Origin: a virus
DNA: 64,000 nt
Virus record (IMG/VR): IMGVR_UViG_3300035701_000003
Reading direction: 5' to 3' (one strand)
Position 1 is the first letter of the stretch. The number at the start of each line of letters is the position of its first letter. The notes under the pieces are model-generated. The model did no database searches. It was given only the letters and a program-made list of their open reading frames with translations, and was not told the DNA's origin. A program made the translations under genes and the position numbers. This document shows positions 13,800 through 33,145 of this stretch, one piece after another.

Positions 13800-15065
13800 A
13801 TGGGTAAAATTAAAGTTTTAATGATTTCCGACGATATTCGAGATTATACTGGTGTTGGAATTCAATCTAACAAATTACTTACAGGACTTGCTAAGAATAA
13901 AGATTTTGAAGTAATACAAATGGGAGTATCTCCTATTATTTTTGCTTCTAATCCAAATCCTGTAAACGTAGATGGTGTAAAAGTATTTCCTACTAGAAGT
14001 TATGCAGATATGAATTTATTCCGTTATCTGCTAAGTAATGAACGCCCTGACGTAGTTATTCCTTTCTCCGACCCTAGATTTTTTATACCTCTTTTTTCTA
14101 TGGATGACGATATAAGGAAGAAAGCGTGGTTAGTTTTTTATCATCTTTGGGATAATTATCCTTTTCCACGTTTTAATACTCCTTGGTATAAGGCCTGCGA
14201 TGAATTGGTTTTAATATCTAAGTTTGCTTATGATATGTATGCCGAAAATGGATGGAATTGCCATTTTATTCCTCACGGTTATGATGATAAAGAATTCTAT
14301 CGTACTCCCGAAGCTAATTATATAACAACCAAAAATGATATCTTAAAACAGTTAAATAGAGACGATATTGATTTTATAATATTTTGGAATAATAAAAATT
14401 TACATAGAAAGAGGGGAGCTGATATTATAACAACCTTCCATTCTTTTTATAAAGAACATCCAAAATCTGTTTTAATAATGCATACCGAACCTACCTTCCC
14501 TGACGGTTTCGATTTGATTAGTATTAATGATGATTTGACTACTATTAAAGAGATACCAGTAATTTTTAGTATCCATAAGGATAAATCTCTTATGTTAAAT
14601 AACTTATATAATATGTCGGATGTTTCTATTAACTTTTCTTATAATGAGGGTTTCGGGTTAAGCGTTGGGGAATCCTTACTAGCAGAAACTCCTGTTATAG
14701 CGACAGCTACTGGTGGTATGATTGAACAGTTAACTACCAAACAAGGTGTTGCCGGTAAGTTATTAGATCCGCTTATAAAAACCCTCTTTGGAGTACCTGG
14801 AAATTCCTATGTTTACCAAGATTTCGCTTCTAACAATGCCTTATTATTAGCACTGAACGAATCCTACGAAAATCGCCAGTTATGGAGGGATAAAGGAAGA
14901 ATAGGAAGGGAACATATCCAAGAAAATTACCATATTAACGGAACTATTGATAAATGGGCTTCTTTTCTAAAAAATCTAGTTGGGAAAGAACGTACTTACA
15001 AACCTTGGCAATTATTTTCAATACCATCTAGTTTAAAGGAGGTAGACTTCCATGTTAAAGCATAA
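13800..15065 (+). CDS. Glycosyltransferase, GT4 family
   Basis: KIKVLMISDD...TGVG; NNKNLHRKR; YNMSDVSINFSYNEGFGLSVGESLLAETPVIATATGG. Confidence 0.85.
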   Translation: MGKIKVLMISDDIRDYTGVGIQSNKLLTGLAKNKDFEVIQMGVSPIIFASNPNPVNVDGVKVFPTRSYADMNLFRYLLSNERPDVVIPFSDPRFFIPLFSMDDDIRKKAWLVFYHLWDNYPFPRFNTPWYKACDELVLISKFAYDMYAENGWNCHFIPHGYDDKEFYRTPEANYITTKNDILKQLNRDDIDFIIFWNNKNLHRKRGADIITTFHSFYKEHPKSVLIMHTEPTFPDGFDLISINDDLTTIKEIPVIFSIHKDKSLMLNNLYNMSDVSINFSYNEGFGLSVGESLLAETPVIATATGGMIEQLTTKQGVAGKLLDPLIKTLFGVPGNSYVYQDFASNNALLLALNESYENRQLWRDKGRIGREHIQENYHINGTIDKWASFLKNLVGKERTYKPWQLFSIPSSLKEVDFHVKA

Positions 15066-16257
15066 TCTTGTAATTAGAGCACCTTTATATTCCAGAAGTG
15101 GTTACGGGGGACACGCGCGCGATTTACTCAAGGCTCTTTGGGACTCTAATCAATTTAATCTATTTGCTATTCCTACTCAATGGGGGGCTACTTCACTTAC
15201 TAGTAACTTATCCCCAGAGATGCTTGATATATTATCTTTTTGTATACGTAACTCTATAGAGGTAAAAGACTCTATTTTTATGCATATAGGGATTCCCAAT
15301 GAATTTGAAAAATTAGGGAAGTACAATATAGGAGTTACCGCTGGTTTAGAAACTGAAACTATTTCTGAGGAATGGGTAAAAGGATGCAATCTTATGGATT
15401 TAGTAGTCGTACCTTCTACTTTTATGGAAAGAGTCTTTAGAAGTTCTGGAGTAAGAGGAGATATATTAGTTTGTCCTGAAGGAGTAAATACCGATATCTT
15501 TAATAAAGCAGCGCCTCCTTTAGAACTTCCTCAAGTGGCTACTCCTTTTAACTTCCTTAGTGTCGGTCAGTGGATACATTACGATATACATCAGGATAGA
15601 AAGCAAATAGGGTATCTTATAAAACAGTTTGTTGAAATTTTTAGATATACTACTGATGTTGGTTTAATAATAAAAACTTTTACTTTTAATACAGCTACCC
15701 CCGATTCTTATTTTACCTTAAGAAGATTTAAGGATACTATCGGGGACGATTTAGAAGGAGTTCCTCCAATATATTTCTTACATGGTGATATGACTGATAA
15801 TGAATTAGCTGGGTTATATACTAATCCTTTAGTTAAAGGTTTTGTGACCCTTACCAGTGGAGAAGGGTGGGGAAGATCTTTAGCAGAAGCGGCCGCTTGT
15901 GGAGTACCCATAATAGCCCCTGATTGGTCTAGTTACTTAGATTTCTTAAATCCCGAAGTAGCTACTTTATTACCCGTCAAGTTAGTTGAAATTCCTTATA
16001 CAGTAGTAGCTGGTTATAGAGGTATGTTTCCGAGAGGGGCACGTTGGGCACAAGTACATCCGGATACTGTAAGTAAAGCCCTTAAGAAATTTTATCATGA
16101 CCACTCTGATTGTAAACAAAAAGCTCTTGATTATGTACCTTTATTTACAGAAAGATTTTCATTTAAGAATTCTTATATGTCTTTAGTACAAAAGTTAATA
16201 TTAATTAGTCCTGGAGCTATTAATAAACCAAGTAACTTAAGAATAATAAAAACATGA
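15052..16257 (+). CDS. Glycosyltransferase, GT4 family
   Basis: SGYGGHAR; FNFLSVGQW...DRK; TSGEGWGRSLAEAAACGVPIIAPDWSS. Confidence 0.85.
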   Translation: MLKHNLVIRAPLYSRSGYGGHARDLLKALWDSNQFNLFAIPTQWGATSLTSNLSPEMLDILSFCIRNSIEVKDSIFMHIGIPNEFEKLGKYNIGVTAGLETETISEEWVKGCNLMDLVVVPSTFMERVFRSSGVRGDILVCPEGVNTDIFNKAAPPLELPQVATPFNFLSVGQWIHYDIHQDRKQIGYLIKQFVEIFRYTTDVGLIIKTFTFNTATPDSYFTLRRFKDTIGDDLEGVPPIYFLHGDMTDNELAGLYTNPLVKGFVTLTSGEGWGRSLAEAAACGVPIIAPDWSSYLDFLNPEVATLLPVKLVEIPYTVVAGYRGMFPRGARWAQVHPDTVSKALKKFYHDHSDCKQKALDYVPLFTERFSFKNSYMSLVQKLILISPGAINKPSNLRIIKT

Positions 16258-16523
16258 TACCCAATTATAAAACCTTACGCTGCAGCGGGACTATTTTAAA
16301 AGATAATTCTAAGGAAATAGTCAAAAAATGGACCTTTGTTCCTACTGATGATATTACCGTTAAAGAATTATCTTTATTGTTACCTTTTCTTCTTACTTCT
16401 GGAAGACCCGGTTTAATACTTTCTGATTTGGAATATTTTGAAAACACTAACTTACTAAGACACTTTATTATTGAAGACGTTTCTAATATATTACAGGTCA
16501 CTCCTAACATTACTATAAACTAA
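16254..16523 (+). CDS. Hypothetical protein
   Basis: 89-aa ORF with ATGA overlap to the upstream gene. Confidence 0.5.
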   Translation: MIPNYKTLRCSGTILKDNSKEIVKKWTFVPTDDITVKELSLLLPFLLTSGRPGLILSDLEYFENTNLLRHFIIEDVSNILQVTPNITIN

Positions 16524-16536
16524 TTAAATAAATTAT

Positions 16537-18447
16537 ATGCCTCTACATACACTGTCTATTATTGTTCCTTTACATAATCAAAGTATCTTTACCAAAAAAT
16601 TTATAGTCTCTGTTTTAGCGCAAGAAACTTCCTTCTATGAATACGTAGTGGTAGTTTTTATAGATAATAACTCTACCGATGATACTCCTACTTTTCTAAA
16701 GAACGTACCCGATACGAATAATATTGAATTTAATTGCATAACTAATGACGAAAATTTAGGTTTTGCAAAGGCTGTGAATCAAGGGATTAAATTTTCTTTA
16801 GAAAACTATCCCGAATGTGATATATTAGTTACTAATAATGATATAGAGTTTTTATCCGGATGCTGGGATGCTTTAGCTACTACTGCTTACAAAGATCCTA
16901 CTCGCGGTATTGTGGGAGGTAAATTATTATTTTCCGATGGTAGGATACAGCACGGCGGAGCGTGGTTGAATGTTTTAGGCTGGGGTCAGCATAAAGGAGG
17001 AGGAACTCCTTCTGATACTAAAGGGATATGTGATAAAGAAGAAGAACAGGAATATGTTACAGGAGCTTTATTTTTTATTAAAAATGAATTAATACTTAAG
17101 TTAAAAGGTTTTGACGAACAATTTTCGCCAGCTTTCTTCGAGGAAACTGATTTTGTGTACTCAGCCCGTCAATTAGGTTACAAAACCATTTATACCCCCG
17201 ATGCTAGAGCTATTCACTATGAAAACACTACTGGTAAAGCTCTTCATAAAGATCCTATGACATTAAAGATTACTTTAAGTGATGCTAATCAAGTTAAATT
17301 TTACCAGAAATGGCCTGGTCCTCTTACTTTTCCAGAAGATAAAGATAGGGAACATAAAATACTTTTACAGGGTAAAATTTATGGCGACTGGTCTTTCACT
17401 AATACCTTAAAGAAACTTGCCTTGGGTTTGGACAAAGCCGGAGTAGACGTATCTATAGCGCCTGATGAATATCATAACGTTTTGGATATGCCTGATTGGA
17501 AAATAAAAAAGATGATTCTAAAACCTAATGATTATTGGAATAGGGTAGTTTTAAGGCACAGTGAAGGGGATCATATGTATGTTGCAGGACCTGGTAAAAA
17601 AAGAATAGGTTATGTAGCTTTAGAGAATAGTATATTAAATTCCTTGTGGAAAGATCAACTTAACCATTTAGATTTAGTATTATGCGTATCTTCTTTCGTT
17701 CAAAATATATTAAAAGAAGGGGGGGTTACTACCCCTACAGAAATTCTTACTAATTGTGTCGATATTTCTTCTTTTCATCCAGATATAGAACCTTATCCTT
17801 TAGGTTATGATTTAGCCGGTTTTTGTTTTTATTCTATATTTAGTTTTGGGGAAAGAAAAGGACCCGATATTCTTCTAAAGGCTTTCTGCCAGGAATTTTC
17901 AAGAAAGGATGATGTGTGTCTGTTTATACATAGTTTATCTATGTTGCAAAATTTAAGTCAGAAAAAAGTATCCCTAAACGATTGGTTGGATTCTTTTGCA
18001 CCTTCTCAAAATAGAGCTCCTATTTTTGTTACAGGTAACTATATATATGATGCTTTTTTACCCGCTATAATAAATAATTTCGATATATTTGTATTACCTA
18101 CTAGAGCCGAGGGGTTTGGTTTACCTATATTGGAAGCAGGCGCTTGTAAGATTCCTTCTATAGTTACTGGTTATAGTGGAGTATTAGAATTTGCAGACCC
18201 TAGTAACTCCTGGTTGATTGATTATGAATTGAAAGATATTCCTTTACAATACTTGACTTATTTTAAAAACTATATTGGAGGAAAGTGGGCTGAACCTAAT
18301 GTGGAACATTTAAGATCTTTAATGAGGTACTCTTATGAACATAGAGATAAGGTGAAACAAAAAGGTGAGAATGCTTATAAAAAAGCCCAGTTATTTTCTG
18401 TAGAAAATAACGGTAAACGCGCAAAAGAAATAATTTTTGAAAGGTGA
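16537..18447 (+). CDS. GT2 + GT4 bifunctional glycosyltransferase
   Basis: LSIIVPLHN...IDNNSTD...NLGFAKAVNQG...NNDI (GT2); RKGPDILLKAF...PTRAEGFGLPILEAGAC (GT4). Confidence 0.9.
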   Translation: MPLHTLSIIVPLHNQSIFTKKFIVSVLAQETSFYEYVVVVFIDNNSTDDTPTFLKNVPDTNNIEFNCITNDENLGFAKAVNQGIKFSLENYPECDILVTNNDIEFLSGCWDALATTAYKDPTRGIVGGKLLFSDGRIQHGGAWLNVLGWGQHKGGGTPSDTKGICDKEEEQEYVTGALFFIKNELILKLKGFDEQFSPAFFEETDFVYSARQLGYKTIYTPDARAIHYENTTGKALHKDPMTLKITLSDANQVKFYQKWPGPLTFPEDKDREHKILLQGKIYGDWSFTNTLKKLALGLDKAGVDVSIAPDEYHNVLDMPDWKIKKMILKPNDYWNRVVLRHSEGDHMYVAGPGKKRIGYVALENSILNSLWKDQLNHLDLVLCVSSFVQNILKEGGVTTPTEILTNCVDISSFHPDIEPYPLGYDLAGFCFYSIFSFGERKGPDILLKAFCQEFSRKDDVCLFIHSLSMLQNLSQKKVSLNDWLDSFAPSQNRAPIFVTGNYIYDAFLPAIINNFDIFVLPTRAEGFGLPILEAGACKIPSIVTGYSGVLEFADPSNSWLIDYELKDIPLQYLTYFKNYIGGKWAEPNVEHLRSLMRYSYEHRDKVKQKGENAYKKAQLFSVENNGKRAKEIIFER

Positions 18448-22950: not shown

Positions 22951-23457
22951 ATGGGACCTTTAGATAATAGCAAAGAATCAAATATTGTTACTAGAGTGAT
23001 TCTAGAGATAAATTATTTAGAAAAATTTATGCTCGAGTCTAATTCTATAGAAGGAGAAGATTATTTGAATCCTAGTGATATAATAGTAGCAAAAGAAGTA
23101 ATTGAAAAAGGAATTAAAAATCTAAAACATCTCCAAAAATTACATAGTATTATTACAAAACATTTACAGGTTTCCTGGGGAGGTAAATGGAGGACGGTTA
23201 ACGTTAAAGTTGGTTCTTATAAACCTCCCTTATGGCAGGAAGTCCCTGAGTTGATGTTAATGTATTGGAGTAATTTTGATCATATGGACTCTTGGCAGGC
23301 TCACAATGAATTTGAACATATACACCCTTTCCAAGATTTTAATGGTAGAATGGGTAGACTTATTTGGTTATCCAAAGCAATTAAGGAAGGTTATAACTTT
23401 AGATATCCTTTTTTACAGAAATACTATTATCAAACCCTTAACAATTTTAGGAGATAG
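22951..23457 (+). CDS. Fic-domain protein
   Basis: HNEFEHIHPFQDFNGRMGR, against the canonical HPFxDGNGRxxR. Confidence 0.8.
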   Translation: MGPLDNSKESNIVTRVILEINYLEKFMLESNSIEGEDYLNPSDIIVAKEVIEKGIKNLKHLQKLHSIITKHLQVSWGGKWRTVNVKVGSYKPPLWQEVPELMLMYWSNFDHMDSWQAHNEFEHIHPFQDFNGRMGRLIWLSKAIKEGYNFRYPFLQKYYYQTLNNFRR

Positions 23458-23461
23458 ATTT

Positions 23462-24196
23462 ATGACACTTTCTGTTTGTACTATTTGCCAGGACGAAGAA
23501 GAGCCGATCCGATGGTATCTCGAATCTTGCAAACACACATATTCTATTTTAAAGGAAAATTTGCCCGAAATAGTTTTAGTAGATGGCGGTAGCAAGGATA
23601 ACACTGTAGATATTATTAAGGAATACCAAAAAGAGATTCCTATTAAATTACTAGAAAGACCTTTTGATTGCCCCCGAGATCAAATGAATTTTGGATTGGA
23701 AAACTGTACTGGTGATTTTATATTTACACCTGATGCTGATATGACATGGACTATTAATTTCCCCGATGTATTTTTAACTAATTATTTTAATTCTAGTAGT
23801 TACTGGGATTTTCTTATTCTCTATACTGGTAAAGATGCCTATCATTATTTTTATAAATGGCCTCTTGGACCTAATATAAGAATGTTTCGGAAAGGTATTC
23901 GATGGGCTCAACATCGTGCATATCATGTTCTTTTAGAAGGACAAAAACAAGGTCTTCCCGTTTGTAGAGACGTTATAATTTTTGAAAACAGCTGTAGAAT
24001 AAAAAATGACGCCGCCTTGATGAATAGAGGTGAAAGACGTCAACTACATAACCCAGGAATGGTGGAGGAGGGGGGAGGGCCAGGCCCCTCTAACAGATTT
24101 TATAGCGCGGCGCACGCCCCCGATAGTGAATTACGTCTTATAAGTGAATATAGTAAAGCTATATCTGATAAAATATTACCAAGTACTAACGGATAA
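23462..24196 (+). CDS. Glycosyltransferase, GT2
   Basis: LSVCTICQDEE...LVDGGSKDNT...IFTPDADM; start set at ATG 23462. Confidence 0.85.
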   Translation: MTLSVCTICQDEEEPIRWYLESCKHTYSILKENLPEIVLVDGGSKDNTVDIIKEYQKEIPIKLLERPFDCPRDQMNFGLENCTGDFIFTPDADMTWTINFPDVFLTNYFNSSSYWDFLILYTGKDAYHYFYKWPLGPNIRMFRKGIRWAQHRAYHVLLEGQKQGLPVCRDVIIFENSCRIKNDAALMNRGERRQLHNPGMVEEGGGPGPSNRFYSAAHAPDSELRLISEYSKAISDKILPSTNG

Positions 24197-24200
24197 AGCT

Positions 24201-25487
24201 TTGAAGTACAGATCTGTTCTTTTAACTTCTATGAGAAGCCCTTATTTAGATGATGATCGTGCTTATCCTCCTCTGGGACTTCTTTATTTGAAATCATATT
24301 TGAATCAGTATAATATACAAGTAACTCTTGATGATGATTTTGATTTTTCTGATATTACAAAATATGAAAAGTATGATTTATTTGGGGTATCTGTTATGAC
24401 TCCTCAAAGGGAAAAGTCTCTTGAGTTTTTAGATTTTTGTAAGGCTACTTATGAAGGGGATGTTGTAATAGGAGGACCTCACGCTCTTCATTATAAAGAA
24501 GATGTTGTAAGAGAGAATTGGGATTATATAGTGTGTGGTGATGGTTTTAGGTCCTTACTACAAATAATAGAAGGAGTTAGTGATAAAAGAGTGTATTACG
24601 ATATTTTAACTAAAGAGCAGTGGCGGAATCTCCCTAGACCCGACCGCTCTAGCGACCAAGCTATTGAGGTGCTTTCTAATTATACTTATATGTTGGGGGG
24701 TGTAAAATCTACTACTATGCTTACTGCTATTGGTTGCCCCGAAAGATGTACCTTCTGTGAGGACGCCCAAACTGCGGTACGTTGGAGTAGTTTAGAGAAT
24801 ATTAAAGGAGAATTAGACGATATTGTAAATTTAGGTTACGGCGGTGTTTATATTTTTGACGACCTCTTTGCCATAGCTCTTAAAATGGTTAGACCTATTT
24901 GTTATGAAATACAGAGAAGAGGTTTAATTTATAGATGTAATGGACAAGCACGTTATTTTAATGAAGAATTTGCGAAACTGCTATCTAGTACAGGCTGTCA
25001 CGAAATAGCGTTTGGAGTCGAGTCTGGTTCGCAAGTAATATTAAATAATATTAATAAGAGGACTACCGTAGAGCAGAATTATAAATTTGTAGAACTTTGT
25101 AAAAAATATCATATTAAATGTAAAGCATTTTTAATGATTGGGTTGCCAGGAGAAACTTACGAAACTATTGCATTAACAGAGAAGTTTATTAAAGAGGCTG
25201 AACTCGATGACTTTCAATTATCAATTTACTATCCTTATAAGGGAACTTTTATAAGAGATACTATTGATGCCCGAGGTAAAGGAGCCGGTATATTTTTTGA
25301 AGGAGAAGGACTTGGGGCGTATGGTACCGGGGGAGGAAATACAGAATCTGTAGTTAGCACCGATGAACTTACTTCCGAACAATTATTACAAGAGAGAGAT
25401 AGACTTGTAAATACATACCGGCCAACTAGTCATAAACAGAAATGGTCGTTTTTCGACGAACATATCTATAGAAGAGGAAGTATATGA
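24201..25487 (+). CDS. Cobalamin-binding (class B) radical SAM enzyme, probable C-methyltransferase
   Basis: YPPLGLLYL, VIGGPHA, GDG (B12 domain); GCPERCTFC, FDDLF, FGVESGSQ, FLMIGLPGET. The start is uncertain (TTG 24201 after GGA, or GTG 24144). Confidence 0.85.
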   Translation: MKYRSVLLTSMRSPYLDDDRAYPPLGLLYLKSYLNQYNIQVTLDDDFDFSDITKYEKYDLFGVSVMTPQREKSLEFLDFCKATYEGDVVIGGPHALHYKEDVVRENWDYIVCGDGFRSLLQIIEGVSDKRVYYDILTKEQWRNLPRPDRSSDQAIEVLSNYTYMLGGVKSTTMLTAIGCPERCTFCEDAQTAVRWSSLENIKGELDDIVNLGYGGVYIFDDLFAIALKMVRPICYEIQRRGLIYRCNGQARYFNEEFAKLLSSTGCHEIAFGVESGSQVILNNINKRTTVEQNYKFVELCKKYHIKCKAFLMIGLPGETYETIALTEKFIKEAELDDFQLSIYYPYKGTFIRDTIDARGKGAGIFFEGEGLGAYGTGGGNTESVVSTDELTSEQLLQERDRLVNTYRPTSHKQKWSFFDEHIYRRGSI

Positions 25488-26170
25488 TACGAATATCTAT
25501 ACTACACCCTTCTTTTAATAGAGTTCAAATGTCCTATGATTGTTTTTGTGATTGGGTTAATGATGCTAAAAATCCTTCTGAAATAGAATATTTAATAGGG
25601 TTAGATAATAACGAACCTGAAAAACTTTTATATGAAAATAAATTTCAAGAAGCTAATAAAAAAGTAGGAAACTTTTTAATAGATATGGGAAATTCTACTA
25701 GCGCCATTCAAGCCGTGAATAGACTAGCTACTAAAATTTCCGATACAAGTGAGCTACTTATCGAAGTATGTGATGATATTGGTAGTTTCTCCGGATGGGA
25801 TACCGCTTTATTCGAAACGCTAAAAGGTATAGATAATTTTAAGGATCCTAAGATGATTGGCACGCATGATGGTTTGCGAGATTACGGGGTAGTGTTTACA
25901 CAACCTATAATGAACAGAGCTTGTTATAACAAACTCGGGTATATAATTTATATAGAATATACTTCTATGTTTGCTGATAACGACTTTACGGAAATTGCTA
26001 GAAGAACCGGTTGGTTAATAAACGCTCCTCATATTTTATTCCGACATAAACATTATTCTATCGGGTTTAATAAAATGGATGCTACTTATTCTAAAAGAAA
26101 CAATACTGAAGAGTGGGATTATAATCGTCAAGTTTATTTAAAAAGAGAAAAAGAAAATTTCGGGTTATGA
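25484..26170 (+). CDS. Glycosyltransferase, GT2-like
   Basis: ISILHPS...EYLIGLDN...VCDD...YTSMFADNDF...FRHKH. Confidence 0.75.
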   Translation: MIRISILHPSFNRVQMSYDCFCDWVNDAKNPSEIEYLIGLDNNEPEKLLYENKFQEANKKVGNFLIDMGNSTSAIQAVNRLATKISDTSELLIEVCDDIGSFSGWDTALFETLKGIDNFKDPKMIGTHDGLRDYGVVFTQPIMNRACYNKLGYIIYIEYTSMFADNDFTEIARRTGWLINAPHILFRHKHYSIGFNKMDATYSKRNNTEEWDYNRQVYLKREKENFGL

Positions 26171-27210
26171 ATATACTAATTACAGGAATTACTGGATTTG
26201 TAGGTTCCCACATGGCGGATTATCTCCTACTTAACACTGACGCTGATATATACGCGATGAGACGCTGGCGAAGCGACGACCGCAATATAAAACATTTATA
26301 TGGAAATTCTCGAGTTACCTTTATAGAATCCGATTTAATGGATAGAGGCAGTATAGCTTCCATTATTTCAGAAGCCGAACCTGATTATGTATTTCATTTC
26401 GCTGCCCAAAGTTACCCCATGAGTAGTTTTATTACTCCTATCTATACCCTAAACATTAACGTGGTAGGCACAACTAACTTATTAGAAGAGTTAAGAATAG
26501 CTAGGGATAGAGGTATATGCGATCCTATCATAATATCTGTAAGTAGTTCCGAAGTATACGGTAATCCGAGACTAGATGAAATTCCTATAAAGGAGACTAA
26601 TCCTATAAGAGCCGCTAACCCTTATTCTATAAGTAAGGTAGCTCATGATCTTCTTTCTCAGATGTATCATCAAGCTTATGGTTTAAAAATTATTATAACT
26701 AGAATGTTTTCGCATGAGGGAGCTAGGCGCGGTAGAATGTTTGCTATTTCTAATTTTGCTTATCAAATAGTACAGCATGAAAAGGAATTCCGCAGTAAAT
26801 ATACTACTATGAATAATAAAAAAGTAACTTTAGTTCACTGGCCCCCCCCTGTCCATAGTTTAAAAATAAAAGTAGGTAATCTTAATTCCGTTAGAACATA
26901 TTCTCATATTGACGATGCTGTAAGGGCCTATTGGATTTGTGCTATCGATGGAGAAGTAGGTAACGTGTATAATATAGGAGGGGATTACACATGTACTGTA
27001 GGCGATGTATTGGATAACTTGTTACATAAGAGTGTACTTCCTTTTGAATCTTTCTTTACCGAAATAGACCCTGGAAGAATAAGACTAACTGATATTACTT
27101 TACAGATACCAGATTGCGCTAAATTTAAACATTTAACGGGTTGGAAACCTAAAAAATCATTAGATGATATTACTACTGATTTGTTAAATTACTGGAGGGA
27201 AATGTTATGA
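26167..27210 (+). CDS. gmd: GDP-mannose 4,6-dehydratase-like SDR
   Basis: LITGITGFVGSH, FHFAAQS, SSSEVYG, NPYSISK, FSHEGARRG, GNLNSVR. Confidence 0.75.
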   Translation: MNILITGITGFVGSHMADYLLLNTDADIYAMRRWRSDDRNIKHLYGNSRVTFIESDLMDRGSIASIISEAEPDYVFHFAAQSYPMSSFITPIYTLNINVVGTTNLLEELRIARDRGICDPIIISVSSSEVYGNPRLDEIPIKETNPIRAANPYSISKVAHDLLSQMYHQAYGLKIIITRMFSHEGARRGRMFAISNFAYQIVQHEKEFRSKYTTMNNKKVTLVHWPPPVHSLKIKVGNLNSVRTYSHIDDAVRAYWICAIDGEVGNVYNIGGDYTCTVGDVLDNLLHKSVLPFESFFTEIDPGRIRLTDITLQIPDCAKFKHLTGWKPKKSLDDITTDLLNYWREML

Positions 27211-28229
27211 GTTTTTACAAAAATAAAAAAGTTTTAGTTACCGGGGGTACAGGATTAATTGGTATACCTCTCGTTATAAAACTTGTGCGGGCCGGGGCTA
27301 ATGTATACGTAACTAGCGCTGATTCTTTTGAAAGATTTCATGTGATGAAAGAATTTATTACTGAGTTTGAATACGTTCAAAATTTCGTATCAGCTAACTT
27401 AGAAAACTACGATTCTTGCTACTCCACCGCTGCTGGTATAGATTATGTATTTCAGTTAGCTGGTTCTAAAGGAGCGGCTAGTATTGGAAAAACAAAAGCT
27501 GCTACTTTTCTTACTTCTCATCTTTTTATCAATCTTAATATGTTAAAAGCCGCGAGAGAGTGTGGCGTGAAAAAATATTTATTAACTAGTACTACTGGCA
27601 TTTACCCTCCAGGGAGCCCCTATATAGAATATACTTCATGGGAAGCTCCAGCAGGAGAAAGCGATAAGTATTCTTCTTGGGCAAAGAGGATATCCGAATT
27701 AGCAGCAGAAGCCTTCATGATAGAGCATGATTGGCCGGGTATAGTTATAGTTCGTCCCGGTAGCATTTATGGTCCTTGGGATAACTTCGATAAAGATACT
27801 TCCATGGTAGTTGGTTCTTTAATAGGTAAATTTGTTAGGAACGAAGAATCCCCTGTAAAAGTTTATGGGGATGGTAGTTCTATAAGAGATTTTACTTATA
27901 CCAACGATATTGCAGATGGAATGCTTCTAGCTTTGGAGAAGTCAGGGAATTGTGAAGTATTTAATTTAAGTAGTGGTAAAGAATATCATGTAAAGGAGCT
28001 GGTTGAATTAATTTATAAATATACTTCCGAAGATAGTAAATCCAGAGAATATATATGGACTGGACCTACTTCATTTAAGATGGATAAGAGAGTTTTAGAT
28101 ATTACAAAAGCACAGACCTTGTTAGGGTATAAACCCTCCGTAGGGTTGGAGGAAGGTATAAAAAAGACCGTTCGGTGGTACAGGCAAAATAAAGATATAG
28201 CAAATATTCGTTATAATGCATTTAAATAA
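27207..28229 (+). CDS. NAD-dependent sugar epimerase/reductase (Fcl/GME-like)
   Basis: VLVTGGTGLIG, YSSWAK, RPGSIYGPWDNF, GDGSSIRDF. Confidence 0.8.
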   Translation: MSFYKNKKVLVTGGTGLIGIPLVIKLVRAGANVYVTSADSFERFHVMKEFITEFEYVQNFVSANLENYDSCYSTAAGIDYVFQLAGSKGAASIGKTKAATFLTSHLFINLNMLKAARECGVKKYLLTSTTGIYPPGSPYIEYTSWEAPAGESDKYSSWAKRISELAAEAFMIEHDWPGIVIVRPGSIYGPWDNFDKDTSMVVGSLIGKFVRNEESPVKVYGDGSSIRDFTYTNDIADGMLLALEKSGNCEVFNLSSGKEYHVKELVELIYKYTSEDSKSREYIWTGPTSFKMDKRVLDITKAQTLLGYKPSVGLEEGIKKTVRWYRQNKDIANIRYNAFK

Positions 28230-28241
28230 GGAGAAATAGAA

Positions 28242-29198
28242 ATGAACTTTTTTGAGGGAAAGCGCGTAGTAGTTACAGGAGCCGCTGGTCTTATAGGACA
28301 TGAAACTATTAGACAACTGCTCGATTTAGGAGCTATTGTTTTAGCTGTTATTTTTCAAAAAAGGGTACTGAAAGTTCCGCCTCACAAGAATTTAAATACT
28401 TTTTTTGGGGATCTTCGAGACTACCCTACTTGTCTGGGGGCACTGTATGGAGCGGATATAGTTATTGATGCTGCTGCTGTCACGGGAGGAGCGAAAAAGC
28501 AAAAACTTAATCAACTTACCTTTGCTCGAGATAATACAGTAATACATGTAAATGTTATTACAGCCGCTGTTGAACAAGGCGTTTCTCGCTTTGGTTTTAT
28601 AGGAAGTTCTACTATGTATCCTGTGAGAGAAGTGGTTGTGGAGAGTGAGGGATTTGACGAAGATCCTTGGGAAGGTTATATGGGGGTTGGTTGGACTAAA
28701 CGTTATCTTGAAAAATTATGTATGTTATTTAATAATACTACTGATACTAAATTTGCTATTGCACGTACTACAGCTGTTTATGGCCCTCATGATGATTTTA
28801 ATTTAGAAACATGCCATGTAATTCCAGCTTTGGTTAATAAAATAGCCCATAGACAAGACCCTTTGGAGATATGGGGCGCTGGTGATGAAATACGTAACTT
28901 TATTTATGTAGAAGATTTCGTCAATGGTCTTTTAGAAATGATTAAGTATAAAACAGACGCGGATCCTGTTAACATAGCTAGTGTAGAAAAGTCTACTGTT
29001 AAAGATATAATAAAATATGGTATAGAATATATGGAGTATAAACCTGAACTTAATTTTGACTTATCTAAACCTACAATGCTTCCTAAAAGAATAGTAGATG
29101 TATATAAAGTGTATAAACTTTTGCAGTGGGAAGCAAAAACACCTTTGAAAGAAGGTATAGAAAAAACAATAAAATGGTATCAGGAGAATTATTTATGA
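28242..29198 (+). CDS. GDP-fucose synthase / ColC-like epimerase-reductase
   Basis: VVTGAAGLIG, YGPHDDFNLETCHVIPAL, IWGAGDEIRNFIYVED. The catalytic YxxxK appears as VGWTK, which is atypical. Confidence 0.75.
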   Translation: MNFFEGKRVVVTGAAGLIGHETIRQLLDLGAIVLAVIFQKRVLKVPPHKNLNTFFGDLRDYPTCLGALYGADIVIDAAAVTGGAKKQKLNQLTFARDNTVIHVNVITAAVEQGVSRFGFIGSSTMYPVREVVVESEGFDEDPWEGYMGVGWTKRYLEKLCMLFNNTTDTKFAIARTTAVYGPHDDFNLETCHVIPALVNKIAHRQDPLEIWGAGDEIRNFIYVEDFVNGLLEMIKYKTDADPVNIASVEKSTVKDIIKYGIEYMEYKPELNFDLSKPTMLPKRIVDVYKVYKLLQWEAKTPLKEGIEKTIKWYQENYL

Positions 29199-30145
29199 AG
29201 AAGAAAACCCTAAATGATTTTCAAACTTGGAAATTAAAAAGAGAACAACCTGTTGCTTGGATTACTGCTTATGATTTACCCCTTGCCCAAACCGCAGAGA
29301 AAGCCGAAATAGATATGATATTAGTGGGCGATAGCGGGGGTATGGTTCAATTAGGTTACGATAGTACCCATCCAGTTACTATGGATGAAATGATTATGAT
29401 GTCAAGAGCTGTGAGAAGGGGAGCTCCCAATACTTTTGTTATTGGGGATATGCCACAAGGATCTTACGAAGTGAGTGAAGAAGAAGCTGTAAGAAATGCT
29501 TTAAGATTTATAAAGGAGGCTGGTTGTGACGCTGTTAAATGCGAAGGTGGGGAAAGAGTATCTGATAAAGTACAGGCAATGGTTAACGCAGGTATTGTAG
29601 TTTTTGGTCATTTAGGGTTGACTCCTCAAAGTTCTGAAACTTTTGGAGGGTATAGAGTCCAAGGAAAAACAATTAAAAGTTTCGAAAGTATATTACAGGA
29701 TGCAGAAGCACTAGCCCAAGTAGGTATTTCAGCTTTACTGTTAGAAGCTATGCCCGCTACTCCTTCTCAGCAAATTGCTACGCTATTAAAAATACCAGTG
29801 TATGGAATAGGGGCGGGTCCTTTAGTAGACGGCCAATTAGTAATAGTTCACGACCTTTTAGGCTTTTATCAATCCTTCAGACCTTGGTTTGCTAAATGCT
29901 ATATACCAGATGTTATTCAAGACTTTATATATCATCTATCAGCATTAACTAATATAAAAGAAGCGGGGCGTAAAGAGAGAACCGATGGTTTCCTAGTATT
30001 AGCTCAAATGGCTATTGAACAATATATTTTAGAAGTTAAAACTAGAAAATTTCCTAGTGAAGAATATTGTTACCCTATTAAAGAAGAAGAATTAAATGAA
30101 TTAAAACAATCACAATATTGGAAAGAGACTTATGAAAGTAGCTGA
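29195..30145 (+). CDS. panB: Ketopantoate hydroxymethyltransferase homologue
   Basis: ITAYD, ILVGDS, IGDMP, VKCEG, GHLGLTPQS, LLEA, GIGAG...DGQ; the start at 29195 overlaps the upstream stop (ATGA). Confidence 0.9.
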   Translation: MKKKTLNDFQTWKLKREQPVAWITAYDLPLAQTAEKAEIDMILVGDSGGMVQLGYDSTHPVTMDEMIMMSRAVRRGAPNTFVIGDMPQGSYEVSEEEAVRNALRFIKEAGCDAVKCEGGERVSDKVQAMVNAGIVVFGHLGLTPQSSETFGGYRVQGKTIKSFESILQDAEALAQVGISALLLEAMPATPSQQIATLLKIPVYGIGAGPLVDGQLVIVHDLLGFYQSFRPWFAKCYIPDVIQDFIYHLSALTNIKEAGRKERTDGFLVLAQMAIEQYILEVKTRKFPSEEYCYPIKEEELNELKQSQYWKETYESS

Positions 30146-31976
30146 TTTTGTAATAAAATATCTTGAAGATTTAGGTATAAAAGAAGTATTTTTAGTATAT
30201 GGTTCTGCGAACGGGGATTTGGTGGATGCTTTTACTAGGATGAAAAAAATTAAATATGTATCTGTTATGCACGAACAGGCTGGTGGTTTCATGGCGGAAG
30301 GTTATGCTAGGGTCTCAAGAAATTTTGGGGTAGCTATAGCTACCAGCGGGCCAGGTGGTATGAATTTAATTACTCCCGCTGGAAATTGTTACTACGATTC
30401 TATACCTTGTCTTTTTATTACAGGACAAATAAGCACTCAATATTTAAGACCTTCCGATGAAGTGAGGCAAGTTGGATTTCAAGAATCAGATATGGTTGGA
30501 ATGATGAAGCCAGTAACTAAGTATTCTGTTATGGTTACCGAACCGAGATATATTAAATATGAACTTCAAAAAGCTTTACATTTAATGAGAGACGGAAGAC
30601 CTGGTCCAGTTCATTTAGACTTACCTCTTGATGTTCAAAAAGCGGAAATTGGCGAGTATAAATTAGTACCTTACCATATTCCTGAATTACATTCCGAAGG
30701 GCCTAAAGAATATATTGATAAGTTATATGAGTTGGCTAGTGATTTGGAACATGCTAAGAGACCAGTTTTATTAATAGGAGGAGGTTTTAGAAAAGACTCA
30801 AAACCTTTATTAGATTTGGGAAGATTATTAAAAATACCCTTAATCCCCACTTGGAATGCTTTGGACGTAGTAACTAATGATTATGAATATTACGGAGGAA
30901 ATGTTGGTACTTATGGAGGTAAGGGTAGAAATTTTGCTATACAAAATTGTGATTTACTAGTAGCGTTTGGTAGTAGAATTTCTGGAAGGATTACTGGAGG
31001 TAACCCTGCTTCCTTTGTAAGAGGGGCTAAGAAATGGACTATTGATATTGATTCTAATTTAACACAACCCCGGTTACAGCAGTTACCCTTTGATTACTAT
31101 ATAAATAACGACGCTTTTAGCAGCGCTTCTGATTTATTATCTATATTTAAGTCTGGTGGTAAACTTGTTGTTATTCCCGATTACTCCGAGTGGTGGAATA
31201 AGGTTAAAGAATGGAGAGATAAATATGATCCTGTAAAAGAAGAATACTATAAAAAAGATTATCCTATTAATCCTTACGTATTTGCAAGACTATTATCCAA
31301 AATACTTCCAAGTAACTCTATTATAGTTACTGATTGTGGAGGAAATGTGGTAGTGATGAATCAGGCTTTTGAAGTAAAACAAGGACAGAGATTTTTTAGT
31401 AATAATGGTAATTCTCCTATGGGTTTCTCTTTTTCGGGGGCTATAGGAGCCTGGTTTGCCTCTGATAAGAAACAACCCGTTATTTGTGTTATAGGAGATG
31501 GGGGTATGAATATGAATATTCAAGAATTACAGACTATAAAAACATATGGTGTAAATATAAAAGTCTTTATAATGAACAACCATATATATGGGATTACTAA
31601 AGCCTTTCAAGAAACAAATTTTCAAGGAAGAGCTGAAGCCTGCGGTCCTAAAGGTTACAACCCACCCGACTTTATTAAAATAGCCGAAGCTTATGGTATA
31701 AACTCTGTACGTATAAATAGTTCTAAGGAAATGGTTTCAAGAATACAGTTAGAAGTATTGGAAAAACCTCATACTGTTATTTGTGATATTGATTGCCATG
31801 AGTGGCATACTTACGAGCCCCGCGTAATCGGTTGGAACACGCCCATCGAAGACATGTATCCTTATTTAAAAAGAGAAGAATTTCTATCTAATATGATTAT
31901 TCCTCCCTTTGAAGGGTATGACTATAAAAATCCAAAGATGCCTGATATTATTCAGACTAATCAGGAGCAACCATGA
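30132..31976 (+). CDS. Thiamine-diphosphate enzyme, acetolactate synthase/YerE-like
   Basis: HEQAGGFMAEGY, TSGPGGMN, GQIST...RQVGFQE, GRPGPVHLDLP, GDGGMNMNIQELQT...NN. Confidence 0.85.
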   Translation: MKVADFVIKYLEDLGIKEVFLVYGSANGDLVDAFTRMKKIKYVSVMHEQAGGFMAEGYARVSRNFGVAIATSGPGGMNLITPAGNCYYDSIPCLFITGQISTQYLRPSDEVRQVGFQESDMVGMMKPVTKYSVMVTEPRYIKYELQKALHLMRDGRPGPVHLDLPLDVQKAEIGEYKLVPYHIPELHSEGPKEYIDKLYELASDLEHAKRPVLLIGGGFRKDSKPLLDLGRLLKIPLIPTWNALDVVTNDYEYYGGNVGTYGGKGRNFAIQNCDLLVAFGSRISGRITGGNPASFVRGAKKWTIDIDSNLTQPRLQQLPFDYYINNDAFSSASDLLSIFKSGGKLVVIPDYSEWWNKVKEWRDKYDPVKEEYYKKDYPINPYVFARLLSKILPSNSIIVTDCGGNVVVMNQAFEVKQGQRFFSNNGNSPMGFSFSGAIGAWFASDKKQPVICVIGDGGMNMNIQELQTIKTYGVNIKVFIMNNHIYGITKAFQETNFQGRAEACGPKGYNPPDFIKIAEAYGINSVRINSSKEMVSRIQLEVLEKPHTVICDIDCHEWHTYEPRVIGWNTPIEDMYPYLKREEFLSNMIIPPFEGYDYKNPKMPDIIQTNQEQP

Positions 31977-33145
31977 AATATAAACTAGCTCAAAATACTA
32001 TTCCTAAAGAGGATATAGATAAACTTATAGAGTGGTTAAAAACTTATCCTCCTCTTACTATGGCTGCGGGTACCTTAACTAAACAATTTGAAGAAGAATG
32101 GAGTAAAACTATAGGTGTTAGATACTCTGTTTTTTGTAATTCGGGTTCCTCTGCTAATCTACTTGCTTATAGTGCTATTATTAATACTTCGTCGCCATCT
32201 TTTTATAAAAAGCATGTTGTTTTGTGCTCTGCCGGCTGGTCTACTACTTTATCCCCTCTTTTGGAAAGGCAAATTCCATGCGTGTTATGTGATGCTGATA
32301 GAGATACTTTTGGGATTGATATGAAATCTCTAAAGTATCTTTTGGATACTATGGATATTTCTTTAGTAGTATTAGTTCATACTCTGGGAGTCCCGAATAG
32401 GATGAATGAGATTTTAGGACTTAAGGAACTATATGGATTTCTTTTAATGGAGGATAGCTGCCCAGCAGTGGGTTCTAAGTATAATGACCAATATACGGGA
32501 ACTTTTGGGGATATTAGTACTTTTTCTTTTTACTACGGGCATCAACTTTCTACTATAGAAGGGGGTATGGTTTGTACTAACGACGAATCTTTATATCACG
32601 CTCTTTTAACCTTAAGAAGTCATGGTTGGGGAAAGAATTTACCTTTAAATATAAGGCACGAAGCTGAATTACAAAATAGAATAGATGAACACCATTCTGA
32701 TTTTACTTTTTATTCTGATGGTTACAATCTCCGCCCTACAGAAATAAACGCTTTTTTAGGTTTAGAACAGATAAAGAGGTTGCCATATATTACGAATGTT
32801 CGTAACTTTAATTTTCAGCATTATAGAAATCTATTAAAGAATAAATTTATAGTTCAAAATCCTCCTATGCACTCTACTGTTTCTTGTATAACTTTTCCTT
32901 TTATAACTAATGGCGCCGCGGAGGCTAGAAAAGTTTTTGAAGTATTAAAGAAAGAGGAAATAGAGACACGTCCTATTTCTGGTGGGAGTTTAGGATTACA
33001 ACCTTTTTGGTTTGCTTATAATGGTGATTATAGTAGTTTTTCTTTTGCGGACAAATTACATAAATTTGGCTTTGTATTACCGTGTCACCCCGAAATGAGA
33101 CTAGAGGATATAGATTATATTTGCGATTTGTTGTTGAATATATAA
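31973..33145 (+). CDS. PMP-dependent NDP-4-keto-6-deoxysugar 3-dehydratase (ColD-like, DegT fold)
   Basis: NSGSSANLL; SFYYGHQLSTIEGG has His where aminotransferases have Lys; LRSHGW; no Cys-rich Fe-S motif as in E1/DdhC. Confidence 0.75.
   Translation: MKYKLAQNTIPKEDIDKLIEWLKTYPPLTMAAGTLTKQFEEEWSKTIGVRYSVFCNSGSSANLLAYSAIINTSSPSFYKKHVVLCSAGWSTTLSPLLERQIPCVLCDADRDTFGIDMKSLKYLLDTMDISLVVLVHTLGVPNRMNEILGLKELYGFLLMEDSCPAVGSKYNDQYTGTFGDISTFSFYYGHQLSTIEGGMVCTNDESLYHALLTLRSHGWGKNLPLNIRHEAELQNRIDEHHSDFTFYSDGYNLRPTEINAFLGLEQIKRLPYITNVRNFNFQHYRNLLKNKFIVQNPPMHSTVSCITFPFITNGAAEARKVFEVLKKEEIETRPISGGSLGLQPFWFAYNGDYSSFSFADKLHKFGFVLPCHPEMRLEDIDYICDLLLNI

Follow-up and report, generated by a model that had tools for sequence, protein, structure and literature searches.

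A long-form PanB paralogue paired with a YerE-like thiamine diphosphate enzyme in a phage glycan operon, with a probable role in branched-sugar synthesis

IMG/VR virus record IMGVR_UViG_3300035701_000003, a stretch of 64,000 nucleotides that is referred to here as the window, carries at positions 29195-30145 a gene for a 316-aa protein of the PanB family (ketopantoate hydroxymethyltransferase, KPHMT). This protein, which we call PanBL, belongs to a lineage of long-form PanB paralogues separate from the housekeeping enzyme, and its gene overlaps that of a YerE-like carboligase dependent on thiamine diphosphate (ThDP). It is very likely that PanBL is not a pantothenate gene, and its functional coupling to the ThDP enzyme is highly likely. 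We consider it probable that PanBL forms a donor rather than modifying a sugar, and on balance we favour the more complete statement that its product, a gamma-hydroxy-2-oxoacid, serves the ThDP carboligase as donor in the synthesis of a branched sugar.

The PanBL open reading frame (ORF) lies on the + strand, starts with ATG and is preceded by AGGAGA 8 nt before the start codon; a longer ORF beginning with GTG at 29126 is not needed. An earlier reading of this DNA, made from the sequence alone (the sequence-only reading), had described an intact PanB gene overlapping both of its neighbours. Indeed the start of PanBL overlaps the stop of a gene for an Fcl-like short-chain dehydrogenase/reductase (SDR) by 4 nt (ATGA), and its stop lies 14 nt within the ThDP-enzyme gene, which starts at 30132; the ThDP enzyme is translationally coupled to PanBL. 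The protein exceeded the cut-offs of Pfam PF02548 (1.6e-90; 303.5 bits, cut-off 28.7) and of NCBIfam TIGR00222 (266.8 bits, cut-off 207.55) and NF001452 (299.6 bits, cut-off 272), and its homologues in public databases are already named panB. Since PanBL scores above curated panB cut-offs, annotation pipelines will label it panB, and the warning of the sequence-only reading that automated tools would mistake it for a pantothenate gene was well placed. PHROGs contained no family for the protein, and no long-form PanB was present among the INPHARED phage genomes, where all 12 matches were below 46% identity and several resembled bacterial contigs.

The Pfam and NCBIfam profiles, which comprise 259-267 positions, cover PanBL only as far as residue 234-237. 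Similarly, PanB of Escherichia coli (1M3U) aligns to residues 1-239, while its last helix realigns at 272-293. In an AlphaFold2 model of PanBL (predicted local distance difference test, pLDDT, 90.7; predicted template-modelling score, pTM, 0.90) two extra helices (237-249 and 254-260) precede the last PanB helix, and the tail contains a short helix at 297-303. The C-terminus thus comprises about 30 inserted helical residues, which had been noticed from the letters as an extra helical insert, and a tail of 20 aa. Foldseek returned 1O68, 1M3U and 3VAV as the top structures for this model, with target-normalised template-modelling (TM) scores of 0.92-0.93 (0.93 for 1M3U). PanBL is 36-41% identical to the solved PanBs of E. 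coli (1M3U) and Mycobacterium tuberculosis (1OY0). It shares with these canonical enzymes the fold, the Mg2+, 2-oxoacid and catalytic residues and four pocket motifs. It differs from them in its additional C-terminal helices and tail, in clade-invariant changes near the active site and in its genetic company: linkage to panC, panD or panE is never seen, and within sugar clusters a ThDP carboligase is its neighbour or fusion partner.

A search of 5.8 billion proteins revealed thousands of proteins of about 310 aa that were 64-72% identical to PanBL over 98% of its length; the long C-terminus is therefore a trait of the clade. We took 120 loci from genome, viral and metagenome collections and dereplicated them, together with the window, at 90% identity to 80 lineage clusters (locus L138, from the unpublished genome G053, was excluded from all alignments). 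Long forms were carried by Bacteroidota, Acidobacteriota, Elusimicrobiota, Spirochaetota, Myxococcota, Bdellovibrionota, Fidelibacterota, members of the Candidate Phyla Radiation (CPR) and metagenome-assembled genomes (MAGs) labelled as archaeal. A maximum-likelihood tree separated the 80 long forms from 9 canonical PanBs (those of E. coli, Chloroflexota, Synergistota and Peptococcales and the additional PanBs from three of the carriers) with a Shimodaira-Hasegawa-like approximate likelihood ratio (SH-aLRT) support of 100. PanBL is not an orthologue of the housekeeping clade, and the clustering with housekeeping PanB that would have spoken against the sequence-only reading was not seen. Median identity was 66% within the long-form lineage, 44% among multi-phylum canonical PanBs and 41% between the groups (range 34-52%). 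The canonical comparison set consisted of 38 sequences, 29 of them from one phylum. When the 81 C-terminal residues of PanBL were compared with 1.84 billion cluster representatives, 40 matches were obtained, all of them long-form PanBs or fragments bar one repetitive protein of 6458 aa. The matches thus gave no sign that the C-terminal module is a domain used elsewhere, for example for docking, and no hint of its function.

That the long form exists beside the housekeeping gene could be seen in ten carrier genomes searched with PF02548 and PF02569. Seven of them possessed a canonical PanB (profile positions 1-258) in addition to the long form (profile positions 1-234). In 5 of these 7 genomes the canonical panB directly adjoined panC, which the long form did in none of the ten. 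Two of the ten, a CPR genome and the genome holding contig L020, lacked panC and had only the long form. Among 121 Acidobacteriota genomes canonical PanB was found in 99 and the long form in the seed genome only; this is the sole tally in which the unpublished genomes G053 and G028 were counted. Where canonical PanB itself occurred in fused long proteins, its partners were PanC, PanE or PanD. The window has no pantothenate context: tblastn with E. coli PanC, PanD, PanE, IlvC, IlvD, IlvE and IlvM, a check whose sensitivity is bounded by these query sequences, gave a best E value of 0.36, in agreement with the earlier remark that ilvC, ilvD, panE and panC are missing. The claim that this PanB belongs to a sugar operon and is not a pantothenate auxiliary gene is thus upheld by the separate clade, by the canonical panB and panC elsewhere in carrier genomes and by the pairing with the ThDP enzyme.

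The evidence for this pairing comes from a survey of gene neighbourhoods of the kind that the sequence-only reading had proposed. A homologue of the ThDP enzyme was adjacent or fused to PanBL in 52 of the 80 clusters and lay within 6 kb in another 4; there was none nearby in 12 clusters with both flanks of at least 1.5 kb, and in 12 the flanks were too short to judge. In other words, an enzyme resembling YerE and acetohydroxyacid synthase (AHAS) accompanies PanBL, within deoxysugar gene clusters, in 56 of the 68 lineage clusters with readable flanks. The pair is present in 13 of 13 IMG/VR contigs and occurs in either gene order. Because the contexts without a ThDP enzyme are scattered within the tree and require at least 6 changes, the paired state looks ancestral. 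Where the flanks are long enough, most loci have DegT-fold and SDR genes beside the pair. In bacterial capsular polysaccharide (CPS) loci the module consists of an E1-like DegT protein (447 aa), an NTP-transferase (258 aa), a 4,6-dehydratase, PanBL, the ThDP enzyme and an SDR; it is a yersiniose-like module of the cytidine diphosphate (CDP) type to which PanBL has been added. Such a module is seen in L002 (RfbF/RfbG/E1-like), whereas that of the phage is of the ColD type. The two partners are unequally conserved: over the same 528 locus pairs median pairwise identity was 66% for PanBL and 37% for the ThDP enzyme, PanBL being the higher in 98%.

Some loci depart from the simple two-gene arrangement. 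A single ORF of 924 aa in L009 (2884-5658) joins a three-domain ThDP enzyme (residues 1-544) to a long-form PanB (622-851). In L038, L040-L044, L057 and L058 the ThDP gene beside PanBL takes up two ORFs, of about 338 + 250 or 378 + 224 aa; these viral and metagenome contigs may contain split genes or frameshifts. In L106 (5975-10889) one PanBL is flanked by two different ThDP genes (587 and 602 aa).

The active site of KPHMT is well preserved in the long forms. In the E. coli enzyme the residues within 5 Å of the ligand are D45/46, D84, K112, E114, H136 and E181 (PMC13488298). In E. coli numbering D45, S46, D84, K112, E114, H136 and E181 were invariant in 80 of 80 long forms, that of the window included, and so were the motifs HLGLTPQS and DGQ..HD. 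Because these catalytic residues are invariant, PanBL should, to judge by its sequence, bind Mg2+ and a 2-oxoacid and form the enolate. Next to the catalytic residues the clade has changes of its own: L47G (by which GDSLGM becomes GDSGGM), F/Y87Q and V/I212L in 80 of 80, and further V51Q and I200Y. In the numbering of the window protein the first three are G48, Q88 and L215. Position 212 is one of two at which substitution by alanine alters the 2-oxoacid scope of KPHMT (I202A and I212A; PMC7611260). Since it has changed in the clade, the preferred 2-oxoacid of PanBL may differ from ketoisovalerate, the relevance of the clade-specific residues being judged by their proximity in the sequence and by the published I202A/I212A variants. 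In the region 226-237 canonical PanBs conserve a basic residue, K/R228, and the long-form clade has R..W...C.I throughout.

The window is part of the genome of a tailed phage, with genes for a baseplate wedge, a tail sheath, a DNA polymerase and helicases that include a DnaB-like one. All of these structural and replication genes are on the + strand, and the G+C content is about 33%. A block of glycan-building genes is placed between the structural and the replication genes. It begins with three genes for glycosyltransferases of PHROG type (13800-18447), which are followed at 23.3-33.1 kb by a packed operon, so that the phage gives roughly 20 kb to glycan synthesis. The operon contains the following genes, where SDR is as above, NDP stands for nucleoside diphosphate, SAM for S-adenosylmethionine and PMP for pyridoxamine phosphate:

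23276..24196, + strand: GT2-like glycosyltransferase, 306 aa (weak match; weak NCBIfam glycosyltransferase matches)
24144..25487, + strand: B12-binding radical SAM enzyme, 447 aa (PF04055 and PF02310)
25484..26170, + strand: 228-aa protein, possible glycosyltransferase (phrog_14945 'glycosyltransferase', 5.4e-16)
26167..27210, + strand: NDP-hexose 4,6-dehydratase-like SDR, 347 aa (PF16363, 5e-65)
27207..28229, + strand: Fcl-like SDR 1 (epimerase/reductase), 340 aa (PF01370, 1.4e-36; NF047922, 100 bits, below cut-off)
28242..29198, + strand: Fcl-like SDR 2, 318 aa (PF01370, 3.3e-39; NF047922, 142.6 bits, cut-off 500)
29195..30145, + strand: PanBL, long-form PanB paralogue, 316 aa (Pfam and NCBIfam matches, sequence matches to 1OY0 and 1M3U, AlphaFold2 model)
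30132..31976, + strand: YerE/AHAS-like ThDP-dependent carboligase, 614 aa (three TPP_enzyme domains)
31973..33145, + strand: ColD-type PMP-dependent NDP-4-keto-6-deoxyhexose 3-dehydratase, 390 aa (best PDB matches 2GMS and 3GR9)

The partner of PanBL resembles AHAS in its profile matches. Its best NCBIfam match was the biosynthetic AHAS large subunit (2.5e-108), with 363 bits against a cut-off of 538, and it fell below every NCBIfam AHAS cut-off. The best PDB matches were two non-AHAS entries, 5AHK and 8RPH, which we take to be the YerE-like enzymes PpYerE and JanthE and which ranked ahead of all true AHAS structures. With its three TPP domains and its scores below the AHAS cut-offs, the ThDP enzyme is a candidate member of the YerE family. 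The DegT-fold protein matched ColD/WbdK (2GMS, 3GR9; 7.5e-59) better than the CDP-type E1 (3BCX; 4.7e-34). In the alignment it has a histidine at the position of the aminotransferase lysine (YGHQLSTIEGG, compared with YSHHIATMEGG in ColD), and because of this replacement we regard it as a PMP-dependent 3-dehydratase. Together with the 4,6-dehydratase-like SDR, for which the dTDP-glucose and guanosine diphosphate (GDP)-mannose dehydratase models scored about equally and below their cut-offs, it completes the pair that makes an NDP-4-keto-3,6-dideoxyhexose acceptor. The two Fcl-like SDRs and the GT-like genes are candidates for the parts of a YerF-like side-chain ketoreductase and a glycosyltransferase; SDR 2 in particular might reduce the ring or the side chain. 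In the sugar pathway the B12 radical SAM enzyme is probably a C-methyltransferase.

All nine genes are shared with two other contigs, L037 from IMG/VR (181.7 kb) and L020. The latter, 28.7 kb long and binned as 'Candidatus Pacearchaeota', is colinear with L037 and with 23276-33145 of the window at 48-65% protein identity, and is probably a mis-binned phage fragment. The GT2-like protein has a homologue at the equivalent position in L020 (55% identical), and the B12 radical SAM gene keeps its position in both colinear clusters. The 228-aa protein, which found no match in a Pfam search, is conserved in both as well. In this comparison the related clusters had a second B12 radical SAM gene directly upstream of PanBL.

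The favoured role of PanBL follows the precedent of known acyl-branched sugars (Steitz et al. 2022, PMC9306805). These are yersiniose A, made with YerE and YerF; erwiniose, with ErwE, ErwF, the aldolase ErwI and ErwJ; caryophyllose, with MMAR_2332 and the aldolase-family protein MMAR_2331; and gastriose, with MyGE, MygI and MygF. The YerE-family enzymes ErwE, MMAR_2332 and MyGE use gamma-hydroxy-2-oxoacid donors supplied by a clustered pyruvate aldolase (PMC9306805; reviewed in PMC12247030). ErwE rejects pyruvate and accepts 4-hydroxy-2-oxobutanoate, 4-hydroxy-2-oxopentanoate and 4-hydroxy-2-oxohexanoate from the clustered aldolase, and its side chain was shown to be built before carboligation (PMC9306805). 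YerE itself prefers pyruvate. E. coli KPHMT takes many 2-oxoacids and likewise yields 4-hydroxy-2-oxoacids (PMC7611260).

Like the YerE-type pathways, the window operon combines a 4,6-dehydratase and a PMP-dependent 3-dehydratase for an NDP-4-keto-3,6-dideoxyhexose with a YerE-like ThDP enzyme for the acyl branch, candidate SDR reductases and glycosyltransferases, and a clustered enzyme suited to making a gamma-hydroxy-2-oxoacid. Unlike in the erwiniose, caryophyllose and gastriose pathways, this last enzyme is a PanB-type, presumably folate-dependent, hydroxymethyltransferase; a pyruvate aldolase was not found in the operon with Pfam and NCBIfam profiles, and the PanB-family enzyme stands in its place. 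The unit added to the 2-oxoacid would here be a C1 (hydroxymethyl) group. Moreover, the 3-dehydratase is of the ColD type, probably acting on a GDP-sugar, and not of the CDP type (E1/E3), and the cluster, which is located on phage DNA, also encodes a B12 radical SAM enzyme. The ColD-like DegT-fold protein with its histidine, the Gmd-like dehydratase and the Fcl/ColC-like SDRs also recall the colitose pathway (Gmd, ColD, ColC), although that pathway lacks a ThDP enzyme, a PanB and a radical SAM enzyme. In the phage operon the 4-keto-3,6-dideoxy intermediate is probably diverted to C-branching.

According to the proposal that we favour, PanBL would enolise a free, Mg2+-bound 2-oxoacid (pyruvate, 2-oxobutyrate or ketoisovalerate) and transfer to it a hydroxymethyl group from 5,10-methylene-tetrahydrofolate, giving a 4-hydroxy-2-oxoacid. 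This would be passed to the coupled YerE-like ThDP enzyme, which would decarboxylate it and attach the resulting hydroxyacyl unit at C4 of the NDP-4-keto-3,6-dideoxyhexose, itself the product of the 4,6-dehydratase and the ColD-type 3-dehydratase encoded nearby. Completion of the branched sugar and its transfer, probably to the virion or to a host surface polymer, would fall to the SDRs, the B12 radical SAM enzyme and the glycosyltransferases. PanBL would then fill the role that the pyruvate aldolases ErwI, MygI and MMAR_2331 play in the erwiniose, gastriose and caryophyllose pathways. The replacement suggests itself because every product of PanB is a 4-hydroxy-2-oxoacid, a donor of the ErwE type, and the donor role is favoured because the published YerE-family enzymes ErwE and MMAR_2332 use such donors. 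A free 2-oxoacid is the preferred substrate because the residues for Mg2+ and the 2-oxoacid are invariant and because sequence conservation is much higher in PanBL than in the ThDP enzyme beside it. That PanBL serves both CDP-type and ColD-type modules speaks for a free metabolite over a nucleotide sugar, as does its presence in loci without a ThDP enzyme, among 2-oxoacid/acyl-CoA or amino-acid enzymes.

The sequence-only reading had placed the reaction on the sugar itself. PanBL might hydroxymethylate the nucleotide sugar at one of the carbons next to the C4 ketone (C3 or C5), or act on the methyl group of a 4-C-acetyl branch once the ThDP enzyme has attached it, resulting in a hydroxymethyl or a 3-hydroxypropanoyl branch. 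The tight coupling to the ThDP enzyme and the fusion suit consecutive steps in either order, L47G and F/Y87Q exchange bulky hydrophobic residues for small or polar ones and could enlarge the pocket, and the conserved extra C-terminal helices could, as modelled, form an NDP-binding lid. However, the two residues that hold the substrate carboxylate, Lys112 and Ser46, do not vary, nor do the other 2-oxoacid and Mg2+ ligands, and the sugar-handling partner is much less conserved than PanBL (37% against 66%), which serves modules of both the CDP and the GDP/ColD type. PanBL also occurs in loci without a ThDP enzyme, some of them without sugar genes, and the ErwE precedent has the side chain built before carboligation (PMC9306805). 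We therefore regard action on the sugar as a lesser possibility: of the earlier suggestion the role in a sugar operon has stood, while direct hydroxymethylation of the acetyl branch or keto-sugar has become less likely with the invariant 2-oxoacid residues and the conservation contrast. Doubtful, too, is the specific version in which PanBL directly hydroxymethylates the NDP-keto-sugar or the new acyl branch and the C-terminal helices serve as a lid for the NDP-sugar or a dock for the ThDP enzyme. If PanBL did act directly on a sugar, folate-dependent C-hydroxymethylation of a carbohydrate would be seen for the first time.

It is improbable that PanBL now catalyses a different reaction on a 2-oxoacid from the repertoire of the PEP-mutase/isocitrate-lyase superfamily (PEP, phosphoenolpyruvate), such as a folate-independent aldol addition or cleavage or a decarboxylation, by which it would supply or trim the donor without transferring a hydroxymethyl group from folate. 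The superfamily is mechanistically plastic, PanBL has a weak match to PF13714, the altered region 226-237 (R..W...C.I) could affect folate binding, and E. coli KPHMT performs folate-free aldol additions with formaldehyde in vitro (PMC7611260). Against this, every catalytic residue and motif of PanB is present and invariant, the TM score to the PanB fold is 0.93, and nothing points to a specific alternative reaction. We give very little credence to an ordinary PanB, that is, an auxiliary metabolic gene (AMG) with which the phage boosts host pantothenate and coenzyme A (CoA) and whose position in a sugar operon is incidental. Such a role would be in keeping with the score above the TIGR00222 equivalog cut-off, with the complete catalytic residues and with the carrier MAG G126, which has panC and no detectable canonical PanB. 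It would, however, leave unexplained the separate clade, the ThDP pairing in 56 of 68 readable contexts, the canonical panB-panC pairs elsewhere in carrier genomes, the window free of pan and ilv matches, the overlap with sugar-pathway genes on both sides and the clade-wide changes at substrate-pocket positions. Scarcely credible is a valine/ketoisovalerate-to-ketopantoate route in which the ThDP enzyme is a true acetolactate synthase acting with PanB and host IlvC and IlvD. Its attraction is that the best NCBIfam match is an AHAS large subunit and that one metabolic line contains both AHAS and PanB. However, the score is far below the AHAS cut-off, 5AHK and 8RPH outrank the AHAS structures, and no AHAS small subunit, IlvC or IlvD was found in the window by tblastn with E. 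coli queries. Moreover, the pair is set between a ColD-type dehydratase and NDP-sugar SDRs, in phages as well as in bacterial CPS loci.

Several observations weigh against the donor-forming role. Adjacency and fusion fit either order of steps equally. An alpha-hydroxy-ketone such as a 4-C-acetyl sugar could act as a bidentate chelator of Mg2+, and L47G and F87Q could widen the pocket for a bulkier substrate, for example an NDP-sugar. The ThDP-PanBL fusion is the sole one seen and comes from one contig of a co-assembled MAG (L009). In 12 lineage clusters there is no ThDP enzyme nearby, and some of these PanBL genes lie amid unrelated genes. As to paralogy, both genomes without panC are incomplete MAGs, and the contig L020 held by one of them is probably a mis-binned phage. 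The Bacteroidota MAG G126 has panC and only the long form, so that a housekeeping role is conceivable there; its missing canonical PanB may reflect incompleteness of the MAG. Finally, the canonical comparison set is small.

The loci without a ThDP enzyme show PanBL in other company. In Bacteroidota CPS loci (L001:7411-11313; also L005, L045, L047-L049 and L082) a run typified by L001 consists of an HpcH/HpaI aldolase, a MaoC hydratase, a second HpcH/HpaI aldolase, PanBL and a PglD-like hexapeptide acyltransferase, with DegT and WbqC genes near; it suggests that the PanBL product is built into an amino sugar as an unusual N-acyl group. On contigs from Treponema, Spirochaetota and Oligoflexia, PanBL is paired with a conserved protein of 360-420 aa (L008:2767-4029; L015:11096-12184; L016:8648-9919; L062-L078) that had no Pfam match even at E = 0.1. 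In one bacterial lineage (L011:6126-12660; also L013 and L094) PanBL lies amid amino-acid enzymes, namely a class I/II aminotransferase, a homoserine dehydrogenase, an unannotated 316-aa protein and a Cys/Met-metabolism enzyme dependent on pyridoxal phosphate (PLP); in this genome a canonical PanB is retained at another site. Since the keto acid that corresponds to homoserine is 4-hydroxy-2-oxobutanoate, a link of this PanBL to homoserine metabolism is conceivable. Outside the long-form clade, P0162 and P0163 are proteins of 646-648 aa in which an NDP-sugar epimerase/dehydratase SDR domain is fused to a PanB domain with 46-47% identity to PanBL of the window; they look like a second sugar-linked PanB lineage.

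In the literature covered here we found no paper tying PanB or KPHMT to branched-sugar clusters and nothing relevant on YerE in phages; Krug et al. 2024 (Angew. e202403535), which was not covered, is said to be an in-silico survey of more than 200 YerE-like clusters. By analogy with the known pathways, what appears to be new in the window is the YerE/ErwE scheme with a different, folate-linked donor-forming enzyme, and in a phage. If this is true, a large enzyme lineage that has been widely transferred, with members in phages, in MAGs labelled as archaeal and in many bacterial phyla, would tie one-carbon and folate metabolism to glycan branching, and a class of branched sugars with structures not yet described would exist. 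There would also be an annotation error to correct: the lineage would be counted as pantothenate and CoA capacity in MAG reconstructions, including those of CPR and of contigs binned as DPANN, and viromes would count long-form PanBs as vitamin auxiliary genes. For biocatalysis, the natural KPHMT-ThDP pair, in one case a fusion, would be a two-step cascade from simple 2-oxoacids to tertiary alcohols. For the phage itself, the PanBL gene would add to the signs that large phages make complex glycans themselves.

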